Source of the DNA: Acidobacteriota bacterium
GTDB lineage: Bacteria > Acidobacteriota > UBA6911 > JACQSX01
Reading direction: 5' to 3'
Assembly: GCA_036507075.1 (NCBI GenBank)
Contig: DASXQR010000073.1
Span: 1 to 64,000 of the forward strand
DNA: 64,000 nucleotides
Shown here: positions 873 to 61,030 of the stretch, one piece after another
Layout of the letters: each line of letters begins with the position of its first letter
Numbering within the stretch: position 1 is the first letter of the stretch
Position numbers and translations under genes: made by a program
Notes under the pieces: model-generated
The model's input: only the letters and a program-made list of their open reading frames with translations
The model's database searches: none
What the model was told of the DNA's origin: nothing

Positions 873-2390
873 ATGATAAACAGCGACTACGCAAGGTTTC
901 TGCCACTGGTTCAAGAGATCTATTATCTTCGCACTACCGCCGGCCTGCTCTCCTGGGACCAGGAGACCATGATGCCGCCAAAAGCCGCTGAAATCCGCGC
1001 CAAGCAGTTGGCAACGCTCAGCTCGCTTCATCACCAGAAACTCACTTCTCCGGAATTCGGCGATCTGCTGGGACAGCTCGAAACCCAGACTCTGGAAGCC
1101 GACGCCCAGGTCGTGGTTAGGGAAATGGGACGCGATTTCCGCCGCGCCGTCACCGTGCCGACCGCGCTGGTTAAGGAAATTTCCGAAACCACATCCCTGG
1201 CCTACAACGTGTGGAACCGGGCCCGCATCCAGTCCGATTTTGAGATGTTTGCTCCCTGGCTGAAAAAGATCATCCGCTTGAAAACCGAGGAAGCGCACTG
1301 TCTGGGGTTCGAAAAGAATTTATACGATGCGCATCTGGATGACTACGAGCCGGGTCTTACGGCCGAGAGCGCCGGAAGACTCTTCGCCCTGATCCGGGAA
1401 CAAGTGATCGCCCTGGTCGATGGGGCCGTAGCCGCCTCGAACAAACACAAGGATGATGGCTGGCTTAGTGCGACTTATCCGACGGAACTTCAGCGAAGCT
1501 TCGGACATGAAATTGTCGACAGCATGGGCATCGATTGGCAGGGCGGCAGGATGGACGTTTCGCCCCATCCATTCTGCAGCGGCAATGGCCCCACGGACGT
1601 TCGAATCACAACACGCTACAACGAGAATGATTTTCTGGTATCGCTGTTTGGAATAATTCATGAGGCGGGACACGCTCTGTACGAGCAAGGCCTGGACGTG
1701 AGTCGTTTTGGAACGCCGCTGTGCGACACTGTATCGCTCGGTATTCACGAATCCCAATCGAGGCTCTGGGAGAATCTTGTGGGGCGAAGCCGCGAATTCT
1801 GGGAACACTGGTTCCCGCGTTTTCAAAAGACATTTCCGAATCAGACTCGAGGACTCGAATTTGACCAGTTTTACGGCGCAATAAACAAGGTGGAGCGAAG
1901 CTTGATCCGCGTCGATGCGGACGAACTGACTTACAACCTCCACGTTATTCTGCGCTTCGAGCTGGAACAGGCCATATTTGAAGGACAACTCTCGGTAGAC
2001 GGCCTGGAAGAGGCGTGGAATCAGAAAATGAAGCTTTATCTGGATCGCATTCCACCCGACTCCGCCCATGGAGTGCTGCAGGACGTGCACTGGGCTTCCG
2101 GGCTGATCGGTTATTTTCCTACCTATTTGCTGGGCAATGTTTACGCGGCGCAGTTCCACCTGCAGGCAAAAAAGGACATCCCCGACTTAACGGATCAGAT
2201 CCGAAGCGGCAACCTGATGAACCTGAGAGAATGGCTTCGGAAGAACATCCATCTTCAGGGGAAACGCTACAGCGCGTCCGATCTGGTACGGCGCGTCACC
2301 GGCGAACCGCCGAATCCGAAGTACTTCATCGATTACCTGAAGCAGAAATTCTCCACAAATGCGGATTTCGGAATGCGGAATGCGGAATAA
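873..2390 (+). CDS. carboxypeptidase, family M32 (Taq-type)
   Basis: LLSWDQET, HPFC, DVRITTRY, HEAGH zinc motif, HESQS, GVLQDVHW, GYFPTY. Confidence 0.95.
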   Translation: MINSDYARFLPLVQEIYYLRTTAGLLSWDQETMMPPKAAEIRAKQLATLSSLHHQKLTSPEFGDLLGQLETQTLEADAQVVVREMGRDFRRAVTVPTALVKEISETTSLAYNVWNRARIQSDFEMFAPWLKKIIRLKTEEAHCLGFEKNLYDAHLDDYEPGLTAESAGRLFALIREQVIALVDGAVAASNKHKDDGWLSATYPTELQRSFGHEIVDSMGIDWQGGRMDVSPHPFCSGNGPTDVRITTRYNENDFLVSLFGIIHEAGHALYEQGLDVSRFGTPLCDTVSLGIHESQSRLWENLVGRSREFWEHWFPRFQKTFPNQTRGLEFDQFYGAINKVERSLIRVDADELTYNLHVILRFELEQAIFEGQLSVDGLEEAWNQKMKLYLDRIPPDSAHGVLQDVHWASGLIGYFPTYLLGNVYAAQFHLQAKKDIPDLTDQIRSGNLMNLREWLRKNIHLQGKRYSASDLVRRVTGEPPNPKYFIDYLKQKFSTNADFGMRNAE

Positions 2391-2476
2391 GTCTCGAAGC
2401 CGAGACTCGGATGTTTGGAATTAAATACTAGATCTCATAGTCTATTCCGCATTCCGCATTCCGAAATCCGCATTCG
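2358..2476. repeat. inverted heptamer array, family A (GGAATGC / GCATTCC)
   Basis: AATGCGGATTTCGGAATGCGGAATGCGGAATAA ... TATTCCGCATTCCGCATTCCGAAATCCGCATT; overlaps the M32 stop codon, between convergent genes. Confidence 0.9.
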
Positions 2477-4558: not shown

Positions 4559-5475
4559 CAGGCTCGTGGCGCGTAATAACCGCTCCGGTGCTGCACCCGC
4601 ACGTTGTCTTTCATCACACGCACCTGAACACGCCGGAAAGAGCCATCCTTCTTGGGATTGCTCGAATAATAGGAAACGTTGTACTGCTGCTTGATGATAT
4701 TGAGGATTTCCTGGAACGCGTTCGAAATCTGCTGCGCGTTAACTTTAGCTTCGAAAAAGCGGCCGCCTGTTTCCCGGGCGCATTCCCTCAAGGCGCCCCA
4801 GTCGCTGCCAAAATCGGATTTCACGCCAATGGAAAAAACAGTGACATCGCTTTTCTGCGCCGCTTCGATCGCTTCCTTTCGAGTCGTTCTGCTGGAAGTA
4901 TCTTCTCCGTCGCTCAAAATGACGATCACTTTACGGCCTGCCTCGGCATTCAAATGTTGCTCGCTCGCCAGCAGAATGGCATCGTAAAGGGCCGTGCTTC
5001 CACCGGGCTTAACGGAATGCAGCGCATTGTCCAGGCGGCCCAAATCAGACGTGAAGTCCTGGATCAGTTCCACGTCTTCACCAAAAGAGAGGATCGAGGC
5101 CAGATCTCTTTTGGGCTGCAGCACGTCCTTCAAAAAATCGGACGCGATCATCTGCTCCACGGCTAACTTGTCCCTTACGCTTCCGCTCGCGTCCACCAGC
5201 ATGGCCAGCGTCAGGGGTTCGGTCTGAGACTCGCTCGGTTTGCTGAAGAATTCGATTGTCTGCTTGACTCCATCCTCGTAAACTTCAATGTCTTTTTTGG
5301 TCAAGCCCGCGACGTGTTTTCCCTTTTTGTCAAACGCCGTGAACAGAATATTGACCAGGTTTACCTGTGCCCGAATCACTGTCTGCTGACCCGAGACAAC
5401 CACCGGCGGCGCGGCCATGGCGGTGACAATAGACAGCACAACCCCGACTCTGATAAAGCGTCCAAAACAACTCAT
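4558..5475 (-). CDS. secreted VWA-domain protein (acidobacterial VWFA-related type)
   Basis: signal peptide, GLTKKDIEVYEDG, DASGS MIDAS, TALYDAI, SDGED, ETGG, YxSSNPKKDGSFR, RSGYYA. Confidence 0.9.
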   Translation of the reverse strand: MSCFGRFIRVGVVLSIVTAMAAPPVVVSGQQTVIRAQVNLVNILFTAFDKKGKHVAGLTKKDIEVYEDGVKQTIEFFSKPSESQTEPLTLAMLVDASGSVRDKLAVEQMIASDFLKDVLQPKRDLASILSFGEDVELIQDFTSDLGRLDNALHSVKPGGSTALYDAILLASEQHLNAEAGRKVIVILSDGEDTSSRTTRKEAIEAAQKSDVTVFSIGVKSDFGSDWGALRECARETGGRFFEAKVNAQQISNAFQEILNIIKQQYNVSYYSSNPKKDGSFRRVQVRVMKDNVRVQHRSGYYAPRA

Positions 5476-5519
5476 AGTTTGAGTGTCGCAAACTCAAGCA
5501 GGAAAAGGCAAAAAGAAAA

Positions 5520-5972
5520 GTGAAAAAAGTGAGGATTTACTCCGACGGAGCCTGCTCGGGCAATCCGGGGCCGGGTGGATGGGCCGCCGTCCTGCTGTAC
5601 GGCCAGCACAAAAAGGAAATCTCCGGCGGAGAGCCCCTCACGACCAACAACCGGATGGAGCTGACGGCAGCCATTCGGGGATTGCAACAGTTGAAAGAAA
5701 GCTGCGACGTGGAAATGTACACGGACTCTGAATATCTGAAGCGAGGCATAACGGAGTGGCTGGCGGTCTGGCGCAGGAAAAACTGGCTGCGTGCCGACAA
5801 AGAACCGGTAAAGAACCGCGACCTTTGGGAACAGCTTGAAGCCGAAGTTGCCCGCCACAAGGTCCGCTGGCACTGGCTCCGAGGCCACAGCGGCGATAAA
5901 TGGAACGAACGTTGCGACGAACTCGCAGTGGCTGAAATACCGAAAATGAAGAATAAGAAACAATCTCGGTAA
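5520..5972 (+). CDS. rnhA: ribonuclease HI
   Basis: [46 protein letters not shown]. Confidence 0.97.
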
Positions 5973-6072
5973 GGGTTTGCGGGTTCCCGGGTTACGGGTT
6001 TTCGGGTTACGGGTTTTCGGGTTACGGGTTTCGGGTTACGGTGTACAGGTTTTCGGGTTACGGGTTACGAGT
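5973..6072. repeat. family B tandem array (CGGGTTA/CGGGTTT), left arm
   Basis: about 13 degenerate 7-8 nt units starting immediately after the rnhA stop. Confidence 0.9.
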
Positions 6073-6087
6073 CTCGGCGGTTGGGCT

Positions 6088-6466
6088 TTAAGCTGAGAAT
6101 GTCAGATGTTCTCGTCCTTTCTTCAGGGCTTTAAGGTAGCGAATCAGCGAACCAATCATGCGGCCGATTTGAAATGTGAATAGCATTAGTCGGTCAAAAG
6201 TTTCCCGGTCAGGTAATCCTGATCCAGTGCCACATACAGTTGCGATCTGACTTCGGCAATTGAGCCCTTTGCAATTGTCGATTTCCGCCGCGCTCGAATC
6301 CTTCTGCGATATTCGACATTGCCGAGATGCTTGCTCTCCGGATTTGGTCGCGCAGCGCGAAATCATGCCGAAATTCCCGTTGCTTCGAAATCTTATAAAT
6401 GTCGTTGGCCAGTTCCCTCGAATTCTTCCAGATTTCCAGATCTTCAAAATCTCGAATCGCAGCCAT
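6088..6466 (-). pseudogene. four-helix-bundle protein (23S rRNA IVP / Avd-like), two frameshifts
   Basis: MAAIRDFEDLEIWK..LRDQIRRASISAMSNIAEGFERGGNR, continuing in a second frame TIAKGSIAEVRSQLYVALDQDYL, then a third frame ETFDRLM..QIGRMIGSLIRYLK; lesions near 6279 and 6207; GGAG RBS. Confidence 0.9.
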
Positions 6467-6560
6467 GTCTTCTCCATTTACTGTTCTCTAGCGACATAAC
6501 TGCCCTTCGTGAAAATCTGCGAACATTTTTTTAAGAAAATTCCGCCTGGTTTCACTTACC

Positions 6561-6672
6561 AACCCGTAACTCGTTGTAACTATGATTCGCAACCCGTAAT
6601 CCGGAACCCGAAACCCGGAACCCGAAAACCCGAAACCCGGAAACCCGAAACCCGGAACGAAAACCCGAAAAC
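6561..6672. repeat. family B tandem array (AACCCGA/AACCCGG), right arm
   Basis: reverse-complement units of the 5973-6072 arm. Confidence 0.9.
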
Positions 6673-6689
6673 TCTCGCCTTCGGCGCGC

Positions 6690-8687
6690 CTATTTCGCTT
6701 CAAGCGCAAAGACTCCGTCCCAGTCTTCAGCAGGGGGTTGTTGTACGAATTGGCGGCAGCGGTTCAGGTATGTTCTGGCAACCGTGTCCTGGGGAAAGCG
6801 TTTCAGGTGGTCGGCAATCATCACGCAGGAACTCTCCCATTGCCGCTTCCAGTAGCAGTCAATGATTCCCTGAAAGGATTCCACCATGGGCCGCATCCGC
6901 TCGGCCGCAGGGTCACTCGTTTCAGCCAGCACTTCATAAACACGAATCGGCTCTTCCTTTCCCAGCACGCGAATGCAATCCAGCTCCCGGGTAAGAAATT
7001 TGCCGCGCACCAGTTCCTCTGTCGCGTCGCTGATCATGATCGTCGTTCCGTACCCCTTGTTGGCGCCCTCCAGGCGCGAAGCGAGGTTCACCTCGTCGCC
7101 GATCACCGTGTACTCCTTGCGATCGCGGTGGCCCAGGTCGCCCGCAACCATGAGGCCGCTGTTGATGCCTATGCGCGCCCTCAGAGGAGCCATGCCATCG
7201 ACCACGCGTTTCATCGCCAGCGCCGCCTGGCAGGCGAGCGCGGCATGACTGGGATTGGGAAGGGGAGCTCCCCAGATCGCCATGATCGCATCGCCGATAT
7301 ATTTGTTAATCATTCCTTCCCGCTTCATGATTTCGTCACCGGTGCGGGTGAAGTAATCATTTAATATCCTCGCCATTTCCTGAGCCGTGACCTTTTCCGA
7401 CATTTTGGAAAATCCGGCGATGTCGGAAAACAGCACCGTCGCCTCCACCTGCTTTCCCTCCAGCCCCAGCCTGTCAGGGTTTTTCAGCACCTCATGCATG
7501 ACCTGATGGGAAACGTAGCCCTTGAACGCCTCCCTCAAATGCGCTCGCTCCTTCTCGGTGGCACGATACTGGTAGAGAGTGTTGAGTGCAAAGATCGAGA
7601 GCATTATTGCCACCGGTTGCACGGTCTGCATCCAGTGGCGCGCATATGCGAAACTGAGAAAAGCTCCCGCCAGGTAAAGGAGAATCAGGACTACAGACAA
7701 CAAAACCTTGAGGCGAAGAGCGCCAAGCCCCAGCACAATGCCGCAGATCAGCAGTCCCGGGATAATCAGGACCAGCCAGGTCTCCACTACTCCCATCTGT
7801 GAAATGAACCTGCTCCTGAGCAACGCGTTCAAAATGTTGGCGTGCACTTCAACTCCGGGCATCAACTCCCAGGGTGACTCAAAGATATCCTTTTGCGTTT
7901 CGCCGCCGCTGATGTCATGAATTGTGAGAGACCGCCCTACGAAAACCAACTTGTGGGAGAACGTGTCTTTGGGGAGAGCGGTTTTATAGTCGAGCGCCTG
8001 GTAGTAACTAACCGTTGGAATGAAACGAGCCGGACCTACATAATCGATCAGAACGGCAGGGTCTTCTCTGCTCCCCCCGACCTGCGGAATCCTGGCCAAA
8101 TCCAGCCTGCCGCCGATTTGCGCCAGAGTTTGCGTGGCTAGAGTCGGCTCACCCCCGATTGAGAGACGGCCCCGCCTGAGCACTCCATCGCGGTCCGGAT
8201 ATTCGGTTGCATATCCTACCTTTGCCCCTGCCTTCAGCAGGATTTCGAGAGGTTCGATCTGCATCACCGCCGTGAAACGCGGATCTCTGACCTGATCGAT
8301 GGTACTGGCCAGCACCACCGGGGCGCGGCTGGCTTGAATGGCGGCTGCCAGTGCCTGATCATCCTGCGGTGTGCTTGGCTCGGTAAACGCGACGTCGAAA
8401 ATGATGCAGCGCGCGCCGGCTTCGTTGAGTAGCCGAATCAACTCGGCGTGCACCCTGCGGGGCCAGGGAAACCGCATCCCGGCATTGGCGAACTCCTTCA
8501 GTGAAGACTCATCAATCGCCACGATCACGATGTCCCTGGGTTTCTCTTCGGCCCCACGAAGCGTGCTCATCATGAAGTCGTAGCTCTTGCCTTCCAGCAC
8601 ATCGAGCCAGGGCGTGTACTGCGACATCAGGAACAGGGATACGAAGGTGATCAGGAGGATGATAATTGCGGCAATGTAGATTTTCAT
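6690..8687 (-). CDS. CHASE2-domain class III adenylate/guanylate cyclase
   Basis: IVIVAIDE, FPWPR, FDVAF, DRDGVLRR, MPGVEVHA (CHASE2); 3 TM helices; VLFSDIAGFS, KYIGDAIMA, YTVIGDEVNLASRLE. Confidence 0.95.
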   Translation of the reverse strand: MKIYIAAIIILLITFVSLFLMSQYTPWLDVLEGKSYDFMMSTLRGAEEKPRDIVIVAIDESSLKEFANAGMRFPWPRRVHAELIRLLNEAGARCIIFDVAFTEPSTPQDDQALAAAIQASRAPVVLASTIDQVRDPRFTAVMQIEPLEILLKAGAKVGYATEYPDRDGVLRRGRLSIGGEPTLATQTLAQIGGRLDLARIPQVGGSREDPAVLIDYVGPARFIPTVSYYQALDYKTALPKDTFSHKLVFVGRSLTIHDISGGETQKDIFESPWELMPGVEVHANILNALLRSRFISQMGVVETWLVLIIPGLLICGIVLGLGALRLKVLLSVVLILLYLAGAFLSFAYARHWMQTVQPVAIMLSIFALNTLYQYRATEKERAHLREAFKGYVSHQVMHEVLKNPDRLGLEGKQVEATVLFSDIAGFSKMSEKVTAQEMARILNDYFTRTGDEIMKREGMINKYIGDAIMAIWGAPLPNPSHAALACQAALAMKRVVDGMAPLRARIGINSGLMVAGDLGHRDRKEYTVIGDEVNLASRLEGANKGYGTTIMISDATEELVRGKFLTRELDCIRVLGKEEPIRVYEVLAETSDPAAERMRPMVESFQGIIDCYWKRQWESSCVMIADHLKRFPQDTVARTYLNRCRQFVQQPPAEDWDGVFALEAK

Positions 8688-12825: not shown

Positions 12826-13144
12826 GGGAGGGACTGAGGGATTGAGGGATTGAGAGATGGAGGGATGGAGGAATGGAGGAATGGAGGGATGGAGGGATGG
12901 AGGGATGGAGGGATGGAGGAATGGAGGGATGGAGGGATGGAGGGATGGAGGGATGGAGGGATGGGGGGATGGGGGGATGGGGGATGGAGGGATTCTGCTC
13001 AGCCACTCAATCATTCCATCCTCAATCCCTCAGTCCCTTAATCCCTCAATCTCTCAGTCCATCAATCTCTCAGTCCATCAATCTCTCAGTCCATCAATCT
13101 CTCAGTCCCTCAATCTCTCAGTCCCTCATCAGTCCCTCAATCTC

Positions 13145-13149
<5 letters not shown>
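12826..13149. repeat. inverted octamer array, family C (GGAGGGAT / ATCCCTCA)
   Basis: about 20 GGAGGGAT-like units, then ATCAATCTCTCAGTCC 16-mers; right arm overlaps the rpoD stop. Confidence 0.9.
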
Positions 13150-14830
<1,681 letters not shown>

Positions 14831-16639: not shown

Positions 16640-16702
16640 CAACGGGGAGCCGGCGTGCCCGAAAGGCAGCTTTCATTATGTTCTGTTTGCGTAGGGGAAT
16701 CA

Positions 16703-16958
16703 ATGGGAGAGTGGGGAATGGGGAATGGGGAATGGGGAATGGGGAATGGGGAATGCGGAATGCGGAATGGGGAATTCGGAATGCGGAACATCTTCCCGTG
16801 AAATTGTCCAGTTGAAAAATGAATCTCTGTTTCCTATTCCGGATTCCCTATTCCCCATTCCCCATTCCGCATTCCGCATTCCCCATTCCGCATTCCGCAT
16901 TCCGCATTCCGCATTCCCCATTCCAAATTCCACATTCCGCATTTCAAATTCCGCATTC
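16703..16958. repeat. inverted heptamer array, family A (GGGGAAT/GCGGAAT)
   Basis: (GGGGAAT)6 at 16713-16754 plus GCGGAAT units; long ATTCCGC/ATTCCCC right arm. Confidence 0.9.
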
Positions 16959-19337: not shown

Positions 19338-19371
19338 GCTCGGTTTCAGGTTTGCGGGTTGCGAGTTACTA

Positions 19372-19480
19372 GCCCGGATTATTCAAAAACTTCACCGCCA
19401 AGAACGCCAAGATAGCGCGGGGTGACGGTCTTAGCGTTCTTGGCGCTCTTGGCGGTTAATGTCTTTGAATAATCCAGGGC
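19372..19480. mobile_element. 109-bp MITE-like element flanked by TA, inserted in a degenerate family B array
   Basis: TIRs GCCC(T)GGATTATTCAAA; TA at 19370-19371 and 19481-19482; interior CGCCAAGAA / TCTTGGCG nonamer arms. Confidence 0.75.
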
Positions 19481-19510
19481 TATTAACCCGAAACCTCAAT
19501 TCGAAAACGC

Positions 19511-20267: not shown

Positions 20268-20675
20268 TGGGTTCCTGGGTTATGAGTTCCGCGTTACGGG
20301 TTAACGGGTTTACGGGTTCCGGGTTTACGGGTTCCGGGTTACGAGTTCCACGTTCCGAGTTTACGGGTTACGGGTTTACGGGTTACGGGTTTACGGGTTC
20401 CGAGTTCCGAGTTCCACGTTCCGAGTTTACAGGTTACGGGTTCCGGGTTCCGGACGGGTTCCGCGTGGCAGGCAAGGAGACGTAGCGCGGCTAAACAGGA
20501 ATTAAAAACAAGAGCCGACCACAACCACAAAACCCGCAACCCGTAAACCCGCAACCCGAAACTCGCAACCCGTAAACTCGCAACCCGGAAACCTGCAATC
20601 CGGAAACTTGCAATCCTGAAACCCGCAATCCTGAAACCCGCAACCCGGAAACTCGAAACTCGGAAACTCGGAACT
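20268..20675. repeat. large inverted family B array with no enclosed gene
   Basis: about 25 CGGGTT(T)A/CGAGTTC units, a ~65-nt loop, then about 19 AACCCG/AACTCG units; fills the pnp-larB spacer. Confidence 0.92.
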
Positions 20676-25344: not shown

Positions 25345-25445
25345 AATGCGGATTTCGGAATGCGGAATGCGGAATACGGAATAATTTTGATCTCGGCCTA
25401 GGAAACTTAAATTGAATATATTCCGCATTCCACATTCCGCATTCG
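25345..25445. repeat. inverted heptamer array, family A
   Basis: AATGCGGATTTCGGAATGCGG... / ATTCCGCATTCCACATTCCGCATTCG between rbfA and nrnA. Confidence 0.9.
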
Positions 25446-25791: not shown

Positions 25792-25963
25792 TTCGAATGT
25801 TCGAGTTACGAGTTACGAGTTAACGGGTTTCGAGTTCACTAATTTGCGAAATAACAAAATCAGAAGTTTCGGCACCGCCAGACGTCCGCGCGCGAAACCC
25901 GCAACCCGAAACCCGTACCAGTCCCGGCAATTTTCAATTTTTGAATTCGCAACTCGTAACTCG
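25792..25963. repeat. degenerate inverted family B array
   Basis: CGAGTTACGAGTTACGAGTTAACGGG ... AACCCGCAACCCG ... AACTCGTAACTCG. Confidence 0.75.
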
Positions 25964-33969: not shown

Positions 33970-34066
33970 AATGCGGATTGCGGAATGCGGAATGTGGAAT
34001 AATGTGGGTTTTGCGCGAAGCTTGTAGTTGCTATTCCGCATTCCACATTCCGCATTCCTCAATTCC
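33970..34066. repeat. inverted heptamer array, family A
   Basis: AATGCGGATTGCGGAATGCGG.. / ATTCCGCATTCCACATTCCGCATTCC upstream of tldD. Confidence 0.88.
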
Positions 34067-34101
34067 AAGTAGAATAAGCAACCTTACAACGAAAACTTCC
34101 G

Positions 34102-41211: not shown

Positions 41212-41361
41212 CGGTGGTCAGTTGTCCGTTGTCAGTTGTCCATTGTCAGTTGTCCATTAGTCGGTGGTTCTTGCATACTTGGTCTGGAAACTACAACTGA
41301 CACAACAGACCACGGACTACTGACAACGGACCACGGACAACGGACAACTGACAACGGACCA
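41212..41361. repeat. inverted heptamer array, family F (CAGTTGT/CCGTTGT and ACAACTG/ACAACGG)
   Basis: GGTCAGTTGTCCGTTGTCAGTTGTC ... GACAACGGACAACTGACAACGGACC between convergent genes. Confidence 0.9.
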
Positions 41362-50857: not shown

Positions 50858-50858
50858 G

Positions 50859-51016
50859 TCATTAGCCATTGGTCATTGGTCACTGGGTTGTATGGCGTTG
50901 CTCAAAAGAGGGAAACCTGGCTTGGTGTCTTGGTGTCTTGGTGGTTGAATTTTTTTTACCACCAAGGCACCAAGACCCTGAACTTTCATACTGCATGGCC
51001 AATGACCAATGACTAA
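50859..51016. repeat. family G heptamer arms (TCATTGG / CCAATGA) enclosing a family D cassette (50912-50987)
   Basis: GTCATTAGCCATTGGTCATTGG ... CCAATGACCAATGACTAA directly after the pcrA stop. Confidence 0.85.
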
Positions 51017-51042
51017 TCACCGGTGACGGCTCAAGGAAACCA

Positions 51043-60862: not shown

Positions 60863-61030
60863 GGGATTGAGGGATGGAGGGATGGAGGGATGGAGGGATA
60901 GAGAGAGGGAGAGAGGGAGGGATCGAGGGATTGAGAGGGAGACACATACTCTACCGCGTCTCACACTCCATAATCCCTCCGTCACCCCGTCCCTCCGTCA
61001 CCCCGTCCCTCCATCCCTCCATCCCTCTCC
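60863..61030. repeat. inverted octamer array, family C
   Basis: GGGATTGAGGGATGGAGGGATGGAGGGAT ... ATCCCTCCGTCACCCC..CCATCCCTCC directly after the ald stop. Confidence 0.85.

Follow-up and report, generated by a model that had tools for sequence, protein, structure and literature searches.

A broken four-helix-bundle gene between inverted heptamer arrays: seemingly one member of a widespread and apparently mobile kind of gene-in-hairpin cassette

In the window, by which we mean the whole analysed stretch of 64,000 nucleotides of an Acidobacteriota genome (G000), the junction between the convergent genes for RNase H (rnhA) and a CHASE2 cyclase is filled by a pair of inverted CGGGTTW heptamer arrays around a broken PF05635 gene (5973-6672), the ends of which adjoin the stop codons of the two neighbours. 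This unit seems to be one member of a widespread, apparently mobile kind of cassette, in which a gene is enclosed by the arms of a hairpin. We lean towards the reading that it is a dead copy of a foldback cassette of the same type as the intervening sequences (IVSs) of rRNA, i.e., a small selfish element.

The left array begins immediately 3' of the rnhA stop codon. TRF finds (CGGGTTA)x11.3 at 5988-6069 and (AACCCGA)x11.3 at 6591-6670, and the best inverted pair joins 5987-6051 with 6591-6655, 65 nt that are 88% complementary. A four-helix-bundle gene between inverted heptamer arrays, with rnhA and the cyclase gene convergent, is what a model had described from the letters of the window (the sequence-only reading in the following), and TRF, the inverted pairs and the Pfam matches confirm it (Table 1). 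The gene is a pseudogene of PF05635 / TIGR02436, with a domain of about 106 residues that is not contained in one open frame: the ORF at 6209-6466 on the minus strand scores 67.4 bits (cut-off 33.8) over PF05635 positions 1-59 of 106, a second piece scores 21.8 bits over positions 58-88, and what is left of the domain is found in two other frames. Pieces A and B are separated by a 19-nt deletion and pieces B and C by a 1-nt deletion. When the gene is aligned to the intact homologue of a relative (L157), seven residues (21 nt) are missing after GGNR with 2 nt in place, which amounts to 19 nt, and 1 nt is missing after DYL; both losses had been estimated correctly from the letters. Since the gene is inactivated, we regard the unit as a relic in decay, at a junction whose occupant changes from relative to relative.

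Table 1. The cassette, its neighbours and related arrays, with positions counted from the first letter of the window.
Feature	Position	Strand	Evidence and remarks
rnhA (RNase H), upstream flank	5520-5972	+	PF00075, 1.7e-46
Left arm, G-rich, tandem CGGGTTW heptamers, super-period 15 nt	5973-6077		TRF 5980-6041, 5988-6069, 5988-6077; inverted pairs
PF05635 four-helix-bundle pseudogene, three frames	6088-6466	-	piece A 6278-6466, B about 6210-6275, C 6088-6210
Promoter-like box (A-tract, TTCGCAGA, 15 nt, GTTATGT), upstream of the helix-bundle gene	6494-6532	-	genome consensus match
Right arm, C-rich, tandem AACCCGW heptamers complementary to left arm	6561-6672		TRF 6591-6670; inverted pairs; predicted stem
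Short terminator-like hairpin between right arm and cyclase stop codon	6665-6684	-	weak, 1 found vs 1.5 expected in shuffles
CHASE2-adenylate/guanylate cyclase gene, downstream flank	6690-8687	-	PF05226 6e-47, PF00211 1.1e-25
Composite: hairpin element of the nonamer TCTTGGCG family between short degenerate outer arms (GGTTTSN-like)	19340-19505		TRF
Gene-less hairpin of the CGGGTTW unit family	20268-20675		TRF; about 24 + about 16 heptamers, loop about 77 nt
Short gene-less hairpin of the CGGGTTW unit family (CGAGTTA / CGAAACC)	25792-25963		TRF

In principle, assembly through repeats could have put the interior at the wrong place, between rnhA and the cyclase gene, and the frameshifts could be sequencing errors. 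Independent contigs break inside both arms, so that the connection to the flanks depends on short overlaps within the repeats, and the depth of interior vs flank is 19 vs 13 in X1 and about 2 vs 8 in X2. We nevertheless find an artefact very improbable, because the cassette interior is unique in the genome, because the very same junction is occupied by a homologous cassette in a syntenic relative, and because the interior recurs in other assembled contigs. The sequence support is drawn from contigs of four soil DNA runs. One contig of the probable source sample is identical over 6008-6634, one of another study spans 6002-6243, and the interior is reproduced in part in two other studies with the 1-nt deletion site included. 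As for assembly error at the frameshifts, a concern of the sequence-only reading, both sites are thus present in the probable source sample, while the 19-nt site is covered nowhere else. Contig joints that lead from arm to arm (e.g., 6015 to 6612) were considered as traces of excision and rejected, as they are indistinguishable from other hairpins of the CGGGTTW unit family; nor do we take the low cover of the interior in X2 as evidence of excision.

The predicted fold of the intact L157 homologue, with helices at 5-27, 36-58, 62-88 and 94-119 (pLDDT 73), is a four-helix bundle, and its best PDB matches are 2GSC and 2RLD, followed by Avd (4DWL) and the DGR RNP 8UB7. Together with the PF05635 match, this bears out the assignment of the broken gene as an IVP/Avd-like four-helix bundle. 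Five chains are present in each of 2GSC and 2RLD, and a homopentamer is described in the literature (Warrier 2016 citing Lin 2006, PMC4990558). The likeness to Avd (4DWL; 8UB7) is one of fold (TMt 0.83, probability 1.0 for the L157 model); in sequence, the similarity to Avd falls below the threshold of the profile search. The surroundings differ from those of a DGR in that no reverse transcriptase, template or variable repeat lies beside the cassette, and the RVT_1 matches of the genome are on C146 and C119, contigs other than that of the window, and not near arrays.

The layout with the gene in arms is specific to the PF05635 gene family and holds across phyla. In the genome under study, short-period arrays occur on both sides within 300 nt at 7/7 PF05635 loci and within 160 nt at 5/7, while of 200,000 random 315-bp segments drawn from the same genome, 0.32% have such arrays on both sides at no more than 160 nt. 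At 30 PF05635 loci of relatives, arrays are found on both sides in 21 cases, on one side in 8 and on neither in 1, compared with both sides at 3/25 control rnhA loci in those genomes; shared labels overstate this support, since the relatives are not independent. A third set, obtained by profile search of genome contigs from many phyla, has 80 loci, of which 53 have arrays on both sides, 21 on one side and 6 on none, against 0/128 control segments; a 7-sequence alignment served as query, and the 80 loci therefore represent one subfamily. The expectation that arrays flank four-helix-bundle genes more often than other genes was thus borne out far above the controls in all three sets.

These counts also bear on an alternative, according to which the hairpins are independent, either born by slippage or MITE-like intergenic elements near gene ends, and an unrelated small selfish gene lands in them or persists nowhere else; a match between protein clade and repeat unit would then reflect common descent together with the landing site. 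We regard this as quite unlikely. Other small mobile genes, namely those of the Y1 transposases, are not embedded in arrays, only 1-2/12 of them in G000 being near arrays, and the layout recurs in many phyla with a period of 7 (117/127 arrays of the many-phyla set) regardless of the unit. What speaks for such landing is that the gene splits an arm in C225 and C88, where it lies between two direct copies of one arm and outside the loop.

Comparison of proteins with their units points the other way. In 13/15 protein pairs with at least 70% identity, the repeat units agree within 1 mismatch, and in four pairs of that kind pS is 0.75-0.86, i.e., saturated. By these alignments, every clade of the protein has retained a heptamer unit of its own even though synonymous sites are saturated, a constancy that argues against mere landing in pre-existing hairpins. 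Across many phyla, repeat unit and protein identity are weakly correlated (Spearman -0.09; 11/2000 permutations as low). The dN/dS ratio is 0.06-0.09 in the 4 measurable pairs, which indicates strong purifying selection on the intact genes.

Such selection would also suit a host regulator, that is, a domesticated protein that acts in trans by binding the arrays of its unit throughout the genome, in RNA or DNA form, with a possible function in termination, RNA processing or hairpin stability; the gene in its array would then be autoregulated and the arrays would have spread otherwise. We consider this unlikely. In its favour, most of the larger unit families with long arrays in G000 have a cognate gene in G000 or a confamilial genome, although neither has one for the AGGGATGG family; the cassettes carry the promoter consensus of the genome itself; and the homologues form pentameric toroids and share their fold with Avd, which binds nucleic acids. 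Yet only half of the PF05635 copies in G000 are intact (4, next to 2 frameshifted ones and 2 remnants), the largest unit family, AATGCGG with 450 arrays, has no gene in the assembly, the sites of the gene differ between related genomes, 12/31 of these genomes have no PF05635 match, and the deletion series described below resembles the decay of an autonomous element.

The proposal that the cassette is a mobile unit agrees with how cassettes of this kind behave, with near-identical copies at non-syntenic sites and one empty allele. To exemplify, two copies (L065 and L066) encode proteins that are 96% identical and share 599 nt at 90%, confined to arms and gene, at different sites, and the L065 site is empty in a second genome (G001), with 127 nt instead of 821 nt. 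The identity between the occupied and the empty site is about 76%, too low to define a target-site duplication or the precise ends of the element. In the GGCAGRA clade, spread over 5 genomes, 10/10 pairs are without common flanks, some of the flanks being short or missing. The homology of non-syntenic copies ends at the arm ends, and the arms travel with these copies, which again speaks against a gene that settled in hairpins of separate origin. In the ACGTSN family, there are outer inverted repeats beyond the arrays.

Cassettes lose their gene by frameshifts and internal deletions, with both arms kept. In G000, the copies on C73 and C231 are frameshifted, C17 has a 47-aa gene remnant, and C82 has a 193-nt loop that still contains the promoter and the two ends of the ORF; C82 and C17 are the deletion derivatives in the pairs C231/C82 and C225/C17. 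In G001, at least 14 contigs have both arms of the ACGTSN cassette with differing interior deletions, two of them read directly. The suggestion that the gene decays and leaves empty arrays behind holds for these derivatives, but remnants are found in only 2/533 empty loops, the other 531 being without any. Gene-less hairpins, of which the genome has about 600 against 8 gene-bearing or remnant ones, need therefore not descend from gene-bearing ones, the more so as the interior of the CGGGTTW cassette has no second copy in the genome. Their excess favours an independent origin of the hairpins, as does the fact that many empty hairpins form separate families with conserved loops of their own and that elements are nested in one another. 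Three sites in the window (20268-20675, 25792-25963 and 19340-19505) had been listed as the same arms without a gene: the unit family was right, but the last of them is a composite, no site has a copy of the cassette interior, and the hairpin at 20268-20675 is without a remnant of it. That the three are empty copies of the cassette at 5973-6672 is unproven.

At the rnhA-cyclase junction, the one syntenic relative (L157) is occupied by the intact homologue in the opposite orientation and with different arms. In G003, a gene-less nested hairpin is located at the rnhA stop codon, and in G002 there is no array at rnhA; the cyclase gene is syntenic in neither. Comparison of the junction between relatives, as suggested from the sequence, thus gave no empty allele among G002, G003 and L157, yet no conserved cassette either, because the arms of L157 differ. 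The locus shows that one and the same gene junction can be occupied in turn by different cassettes. Unrelated units at this junction in two relatives, and the nested hairpin of G003, would also be expected if hairpins arose there on their own.

With regard to RNA, the predicted fold pairs both arms (MFE -282 kcal/mol, z -9.5), and the terminal inverted repeats, complementary at 88% over 65 nt, would be able to form a stem around the ORF. Duplex energies of the 320-nt flanks (sense vs antisense) were too noisy, and a test on mismatch classes was used instead: the arm mismatches have no G-U excess (87 vs 106, p = 0.19). Of the proposed long RNA stem, it is the predicted capacity that stands, without an echo in the mismatches; the stem as such is unproven.

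The nearest known system is the ORF-bearing IVS of 23S rRNA, as in Coxiella burnetii, Leptospira and others. In the account of Coxiella burnetii in PMC4990558, the helix-45 IVS has a 28-bp stem that is cleaved by RNase III, GACAGAT heptamers occur 3-4 times before the S23p start codon in a number that depends on the strain, and the ORF is decaying. An S23p/PF05635 ORF in the loop of a stem of terminal inverted repeats, tandem heptamers and a decaying ORF are thus common to IVS and cassette, and IVSs are there regarded as selfish. The two differ in site, which is helix 25 or 45 of 23S rRNA for the IVS and the space between the rnhA and cyclase genes for the cassette, and in arm length, which is about 100 nt or about 11 heptamers for the cassette compared with the 28-bp stem of the Coxiella IVS (PMC4990558). 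Unlike the IVS, the cassette has a promoter-like box of its own, and it is for the IVS that excision by RNase III is demonstrated (PMC4990558).

Heptamer repeats have been described as GGGAATC inverted pairs in Xanthomonas and GGGGAYT in Nostoc (Rehm 2015, PMC4692102), as heptanucleotide repeats in Geobacter (PMC2700814) and as TAACTGA repeats in Beggiatoaceae (PMC4679880). Published repeats are, as here, mostly intergenic and near gene ends, often as convergent pairs (70-75 in Xanthomonas; PMC4692102), and one GGGAATC array overlaps the annotated start of XCC0516, a crystallised member of the PF05635 family (PMC4692102, supplement file 2). In their main texts, where '23S' and 'four helix' are absent, these three papers give a G-quadruplex or regulatory reading and leave the four-helix-bundle gene unmentioned. 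We found no published description of a helix-bundle gene in a heptamer hairpin.

Cassettes resemble MITEs, REPINs and their autonomous parents as dispersed hairpin-forming elements, in the case of ACGTSN in G001 with a deletion series from gene-bearing to gene-less; the CGGGTTW cassette, with its unique interior, has no such series. They differ from these and from RAYTs in that the gene is no known transposase or RAYT and in that the arms are tandem arrays of variable length, not fixed terminal repeats. Arms of tandem short repeats are a property of the foldback (FB) transposons of eukaryotes.

In the favoured interpretation, as an IVS-type foldback cassette, the element would consist of two inverted heptamer arms that enclose a promoter and one gene, whose four-helix-bundle product (PF05635, S23p/IVP, Avd fold) forms pentamers. 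The protein would recognise the unit of its own arms in DNA or RNA form. Elements with such arms, gene-less derivatives served in trans among them, may thereby spread or be retained, and host enzymes would supply the catalytic steps. The transcribed arms would, by analogy with rRNA IVSs, form a stem that RNase III can cut, and from such cutting it would follow that insertions at gene ends are harmless.

Proteins of the PF05635/S23p type have had structures since 2006, and we know of no function for them; catalogues of bacterial heptamer repeats go back to about 1990, to our knowledge with no agreement on the origin of the repeats. If their pairing is specific, co-varying and evolutionarily maintained, it joins the two into one testable system. 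Seen in this way, rRNA intervening sequences would be the smaller share, resident in rRNA, of a much larger class of foldback elements, and the pairing would explain poor assembly at gene ends in repeat-rich soil genomes such as G000. In a wider and more tentative reading, possible rather than probable, the pentameric protein would be the sequence-reading subunit of a hitherto unrecognised class of foldback elements in prokaryotes that spans phyla, each clade reading its specific heptamer, and together with host enzymes it would drive both spread and upkeep of gene-bearing and gene-less hairpins alike; rRNA IVSs and heptamer repeats, such as GGGAATC and the STRR, which are intergenic heptamer repeats of cyanobacteria, would then be one system.

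As to the enzymes, genes for a transposase, recombinase or polymerase are absent from the cassette, and none of the host enzymes could be linked to the cassettes. PF05635 and RVT_1 occur together in 14 genomes, PF05635 alone in 5 (G004, G008, G013, G018 and G023, a single-contig genome among them), RVT_1 alone in 6 and neither in 6. Synthesis of arms by a telomerase-like or other RT-dependent route is unsupported, as RVT_1 was not found in those 5 of the 19 PF05635-positive relatives. Y1 transposases are present in 18/19 PF05635-positive and 9/12 negative genomes and, being in 27/31 in all, are too widespread for a test of their role as mobiliser. Among the 12 Y1 matches in G000, the one on C85 lies among AATGCGG-type arrays and the one on C122 partly so; none is associated with CGGGTTW arms.

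Some minor observations on the locus and its arrays may be added. No Rfam family matches within 5400-7300, and a scan with the sigma-70 consensus gave 0 promoters. The promoter-like box was considered as a marker of cassettes and rejected, because its consensus is genome-wide, with 31 matches of which 8 are near arrays. The G-rich arm comes first in 315/327 heptamer hairpins, and if the hairpins did belong to one foldback class, this polarity would be a footprint of how arms are made or tolerated.

Genes of the PF05635 family (23S rRNA intervening-sequence protein, Avd-like) lie between inverted arrays of short repeats far more often than other genes do; the refuting condition set by the sequence-only reading, no enrichment over other genes, clearly fails. 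In the source genome of the window (G000), all seven PF05635 loci have arrays of short period on both sides within 300 nt, and a strict 160-nt rule is satisfied by five of the seven vs 0.32% of 200,000 random segments. The family is present in 18 of 30 relatives of the same class (19 of 31 genomes with G000 included). Of 30 loci fetched from this set, 21 have arrays on both sides, eight on one side and one on neither, vs 3/25 for control rnhA loci in the same genomes; the 30 include two loci from G000 and two from the relative G015, and without the G015 pair the count is 20/28. The association extends to 80 loci of a single protein subfamily, drawn from Acidobacteriota, Desulfobacterota, Chloroflexota, Bacillota, Bacteroidota, Planctomycetota, Pseudomonadota, Verrucomicrobiota, Patescibacteria and one archaeal metagenome-assembled genome. 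Here, 53 loci have arrays on both sides, 21 on one and six on none, while no array pair flanks any of 128 control segments from the same loci. The period is 7 in 117 of 127 arrays, and at 57 of 79 loci the inverted alignment scores above the highest control.

The arrangement is not always a simple enclosure. In two intact G000 loci, on contigs C225 and C88, the gene lies between two direct arm copies and the complementary arm farther out, i.e., in the order arm, gene, arm, loop, complementary arm. Among Y1-transposase genes of G000, one of 12 lies among arrays (C85), and another does so partly (C122). The C85 gene, which is RAYT-like, sits between REP-like hairpins, and the arrays on its flanks, GGAATKG and CGGAATG, belong to the largest unit family in the genome.

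Features of the window and of other contigs of the source genome
Feature	Position	Strand	Remark
rnhA	5520-5972	+	stop codon adjoins left array start
Cassette	5973-6672		between convergent rnhA and CHASE2-cyclase genes
Left array	5988-6069		(CGGGTTA)x11.3, TRF
Promoter-like box	6494-6532	-	
Right array	6591-6670		(AACCCGA)x11.3, TRF
CHASE2-cyclase gene	6690-8687	-	stop codon 17 nt past right array end
Inverted array pair	12827-13150		GGAGGGAT
Inverted array pair	41217-41359		GTCAGTT/ACAACGG
Inverted array pair	50858-51021		GTCATTG
Inverted array pair	60863-61027		GGGATGGA
Nested hairpin	19340-19505		in loop of another hairpin
Hairpin (polarity example)	2358-2475		
Hairpin (polarity example)	16702-16958		
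Hairpin (polarity example)	25345-25444		
Hairpin (polarity example)	33970-34067		
Hairpin (polarity example)	52868-52988		
Gene between direct arms	C225:58441-59400		intact
Gene between direct arms	C88:58486-59238		intact
Y1-transposase gene	C85:28590-29603		between REP-like hairpins

The window unit is a decayed member of this family of IVS-type foldback cassettes. Its best arm pair spans 65 nt with 88% complementarity and, when the 717-nt unit is folded as RNA, a single long stem between the arms is predicted (MFE -282 kcal/mol; z = -9.5 vs 20 shuffles); a search of Rfam gave no family match to the cassette. The gene is on the minus strand, with residues 1-63 in a single frame (67.4 bits, cut-off 33.8) and the rest split over two further frames. 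Alignment with the intact homologue on L157, a metagenome contig of a closer relative, places the lesions where the sequence-only reading had estimated them: seven residues are missing after GGNR while 2 nt remain, i.e., 19 nt are deleted, and 1 nt is missing after DYL. One contig from the probable source sample is identical to window positions 6008-6634, and one from another study is identical to 6002-6243, which includes the 1-nt site. Independent cover thus extends to the 1-nt site; the 19-nt deletion recurs only in the probable source sample.

Within the cassette lies a promoter-like box, found strongly conserved at 30 other places in G000, which consists of a tract rich in T or A, TTCGCAGA, a spacer of about 15 nt and GGTTATGT. 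The box precedes many small or mobile-looking genes, several Y1-transposase genes among them, and a specific sigma factor may recognise it.

A profile built from 19 members of the family hits two five-chain PDB entries, 2GSC (XCC0516; E = 7e-33) and 2RLD (E = 3e-19). The L157 protein is predicted to fold into four helices (pLDDT 73), and its best structural matches after these two are Avd in the ribonucleoprotein 8UB7 of a diversity-generating retroelement and free Avd (4DWL, TMt 0.83). No reverse transcriptase lies near the window cassette. Across the relatives PF05635 and RVT_1 are not linked: 14 genomes have both, five only PF05635, six only RVT_1 and six neither.

On L157 the order vwa-rnhA-X-cyclase is kept (protein identities 86%, 85% and 81%), and X is an intact PF05635 homologue of 126 codons, in a cassette that fills the junction from stop codon to stop codon. 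The gene has the orientation opposite to that in the window, and the arms are (AATTGAA/AATTGCG)x5 and (TTCAATC)x30. The two proteins are mutual best matches in the local set: the three pieces of the window gene show 60%, 73% and 37.5% identity to the L157 protein, whose next best match reaches 48%. Either a single cassette may have persisted, flipping by way of its arms and acquiring a different unit, or two related cassettes may have taken the same site successively. An empty rnhA-cyclase junction, for which the sequence-only reading had proposed to look, was not found in the relatives compared. L157 is occupied, by a differing cassette; in the relative G003 a gene-less nested hairpin (outer unit GGAGGCA, inner GTCATTC) begins inside the end of rnhA; in G002 there is no array at the rnhA end; and in both of the latter genomes the cyclase gene is located elsewhere. 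At the G003 locus L002, the rnhA frame enters a heptamer array, which provides its final codons and stop codon.

The mobility and decay proposed for the cassette are supported for the family. In the GGCAGRA clade, found in five genomes, flanking genes are unshared in 10 of 10 pairs, some flanks being short or missing. Loci L065 (G003) and L066 (G001) encode proteins that are 96% identical and have 599 nt in common at 90%; this stretch comprises arms and gene only, and the sites differ. The G001 site orthologous to L065 is empty, with 127 nt vs 821 nt between conserved flanks. With an identity of only about 76% between the occupied and the empty site, no target-site duplication could be made out. 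Cassettes are also inherited vertically, because two other pairs are syntenic. The ACGTSN cassette (L065, L066, L239 and L240, in G001 and G003) has outer inverted repeats beyond the arrays, and some copies have a further 65 nt or so in common beyond the right arm, from which it follows that the mobile unit can exceed arms plus gene.

Decay is seen in G000 as four intact genes (C199, C88, C225, C37), two frameshifted ones (the window contig C73, and C231) and two remnants. In C17, 47 codons survive inside a loop of 154 nt; C82, which has the same arms as its paralogue C231, retains the promoter and about 15 codons of each ORF end in a 193-nt loop. In G001, at least 14 copies of the ACGTSN cassette on separate contigs have adjacent left-arm and right-arm matches, with about 200-460 nt of interior absent and differing breakpoints (two copies were checked base by base). 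This series resembles an autonomous element decaying into non-autonomous ones.

The three gene-less hairpins that the sequence-only reading took for empty copies do have a unit family in common with the window cassette, but their descent from it is not supported: the cassette interior has no second copy in G000, a coding remnant occurs in only two of 533 empty loops and the promoter box in only one, and 306 of 523 loops are singletons, the rest falling into families that each have a conserved loop and that often nest in one another. The assembly (6.12 Mb, 233 contigs, G+C 56%) contains 2885 merged arrays of period 6-9, 117.6 kb in total by TRF, whose units group into about 16 large families, the largest being AATGCGG/ATTCCGC with 450 arrays. 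Inverted pairs whose units are complementary number 766, and in about 600 the loop is below 300 nt (median 86 nt), so gene-less hairpins are the rule. Hairpins often lie nested in the loops of others, as in the window, at L002 and in many G000 loops, a sign that insertion may favour loops or arms.

Array units vary among loci yet track protein clades. For protein pairs with at least 70% identity, the units agree within one mismatch in 13 of 15; one pair is two mismatches apart, and the last was mis-scored when an adjacent array was picked. In four such pairs the unit is retained although the proportion of synonymous differences, 0.75-0.86, is saturated. As relatives are not independent, such counts overstate the support; the saturation argument for unit-protein pairing is the stronger. 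A dN/dS of 0.06-0.09 in the four pairs with measurable dS implies that intact genes encode a selected protein. Across phyla, protein identity and unit are weakly related (Spearman -0.09, with 11 of 2000 permutations as low), and a common unit is seen in 2% of the pairs with 35-45% identity but in 32% of those above 65%. For most of the larger long-array unit families of G000, a cognate cassette exists in G000 itself or in a genome of the same family, e.g., for AAAGTCG (G001 and G003) and for AATGCGG (G001, with a unit that differs by one mismatch); for AGGGATGG no cognate gene was found in these genomes. Among 60 loci of the 80-locus subfamily, AG occurs in the unit of the G-rich strand at 55, AGT at 30 and CAG at 25; units of the AGTGGNN type are seen repeatedly, in Acidobacteriota, Gammaproteobacteria, Clostridia, Chloroflexota and Planctomycetota.

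If the stem were selected in sense RNA, arm mismatches should favour G-U over A-C. No such excess was seen in the 41 of 55 cassettes whose arms aligned well enough (87 G-U-type vs 106 A-C-type, p = 0.19, beside 198 transversions). An RNA role of the arms thus gains no support from this test but is compatible with it, since both strands may be transcribed. The Coxiella IVS has a 28-bp stem, is cleaved by RNase III and carries a decaying ORF; GACAGAT heptamers, three or four in tandem depending on the strain, stand ahead of the start codon of S23p, and the Xanthomonas homologue is pentameric (Warrier et al. 2016, PMC4990558). Xanthomonas also has 70-75 convergent GGGAATC repeat pairs, and in supplement file 2 of that study an array overlaps the start of XCC0516, on which the text passages make no remark (Rehm et al. 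2015, PMC4692102). Passages describing heptamer repeats in Aklujkar 2009 (PMC2700814) and MacGregor 2015 (PMC4679880) do not mention a PF05635 gene. A published link between free-standing PF05635 genes and heptamer-array arms was not found in the literature searched; subscription journals or supplements may hold one.

The hairpins have a marked polarity. Among 599 G000 hairpins with loops of at most 300 nt, 327 are heptameric, and of these the G-rich arm comes first in 315 and the C-rich arm in six, with six ties; the bias spans at least 15 unit families. As heptamer hairpins are inverted repeats, their polarity is the same on both strands and independent of gene orientation. Cassette arms follow the same rule, G-rich first in 33 vs 9 among relatives (nine ties) and in 63 vs 8 across phyla. 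A possible explanation is that the C-rich arm, if transcribed ahead of its partner, would remain single-stranded for enough time to load Rho. The opposite polarity prevails in nonamer families (16 G-rich first vs 82 C-rich first) and hexamers (1 vs 23).
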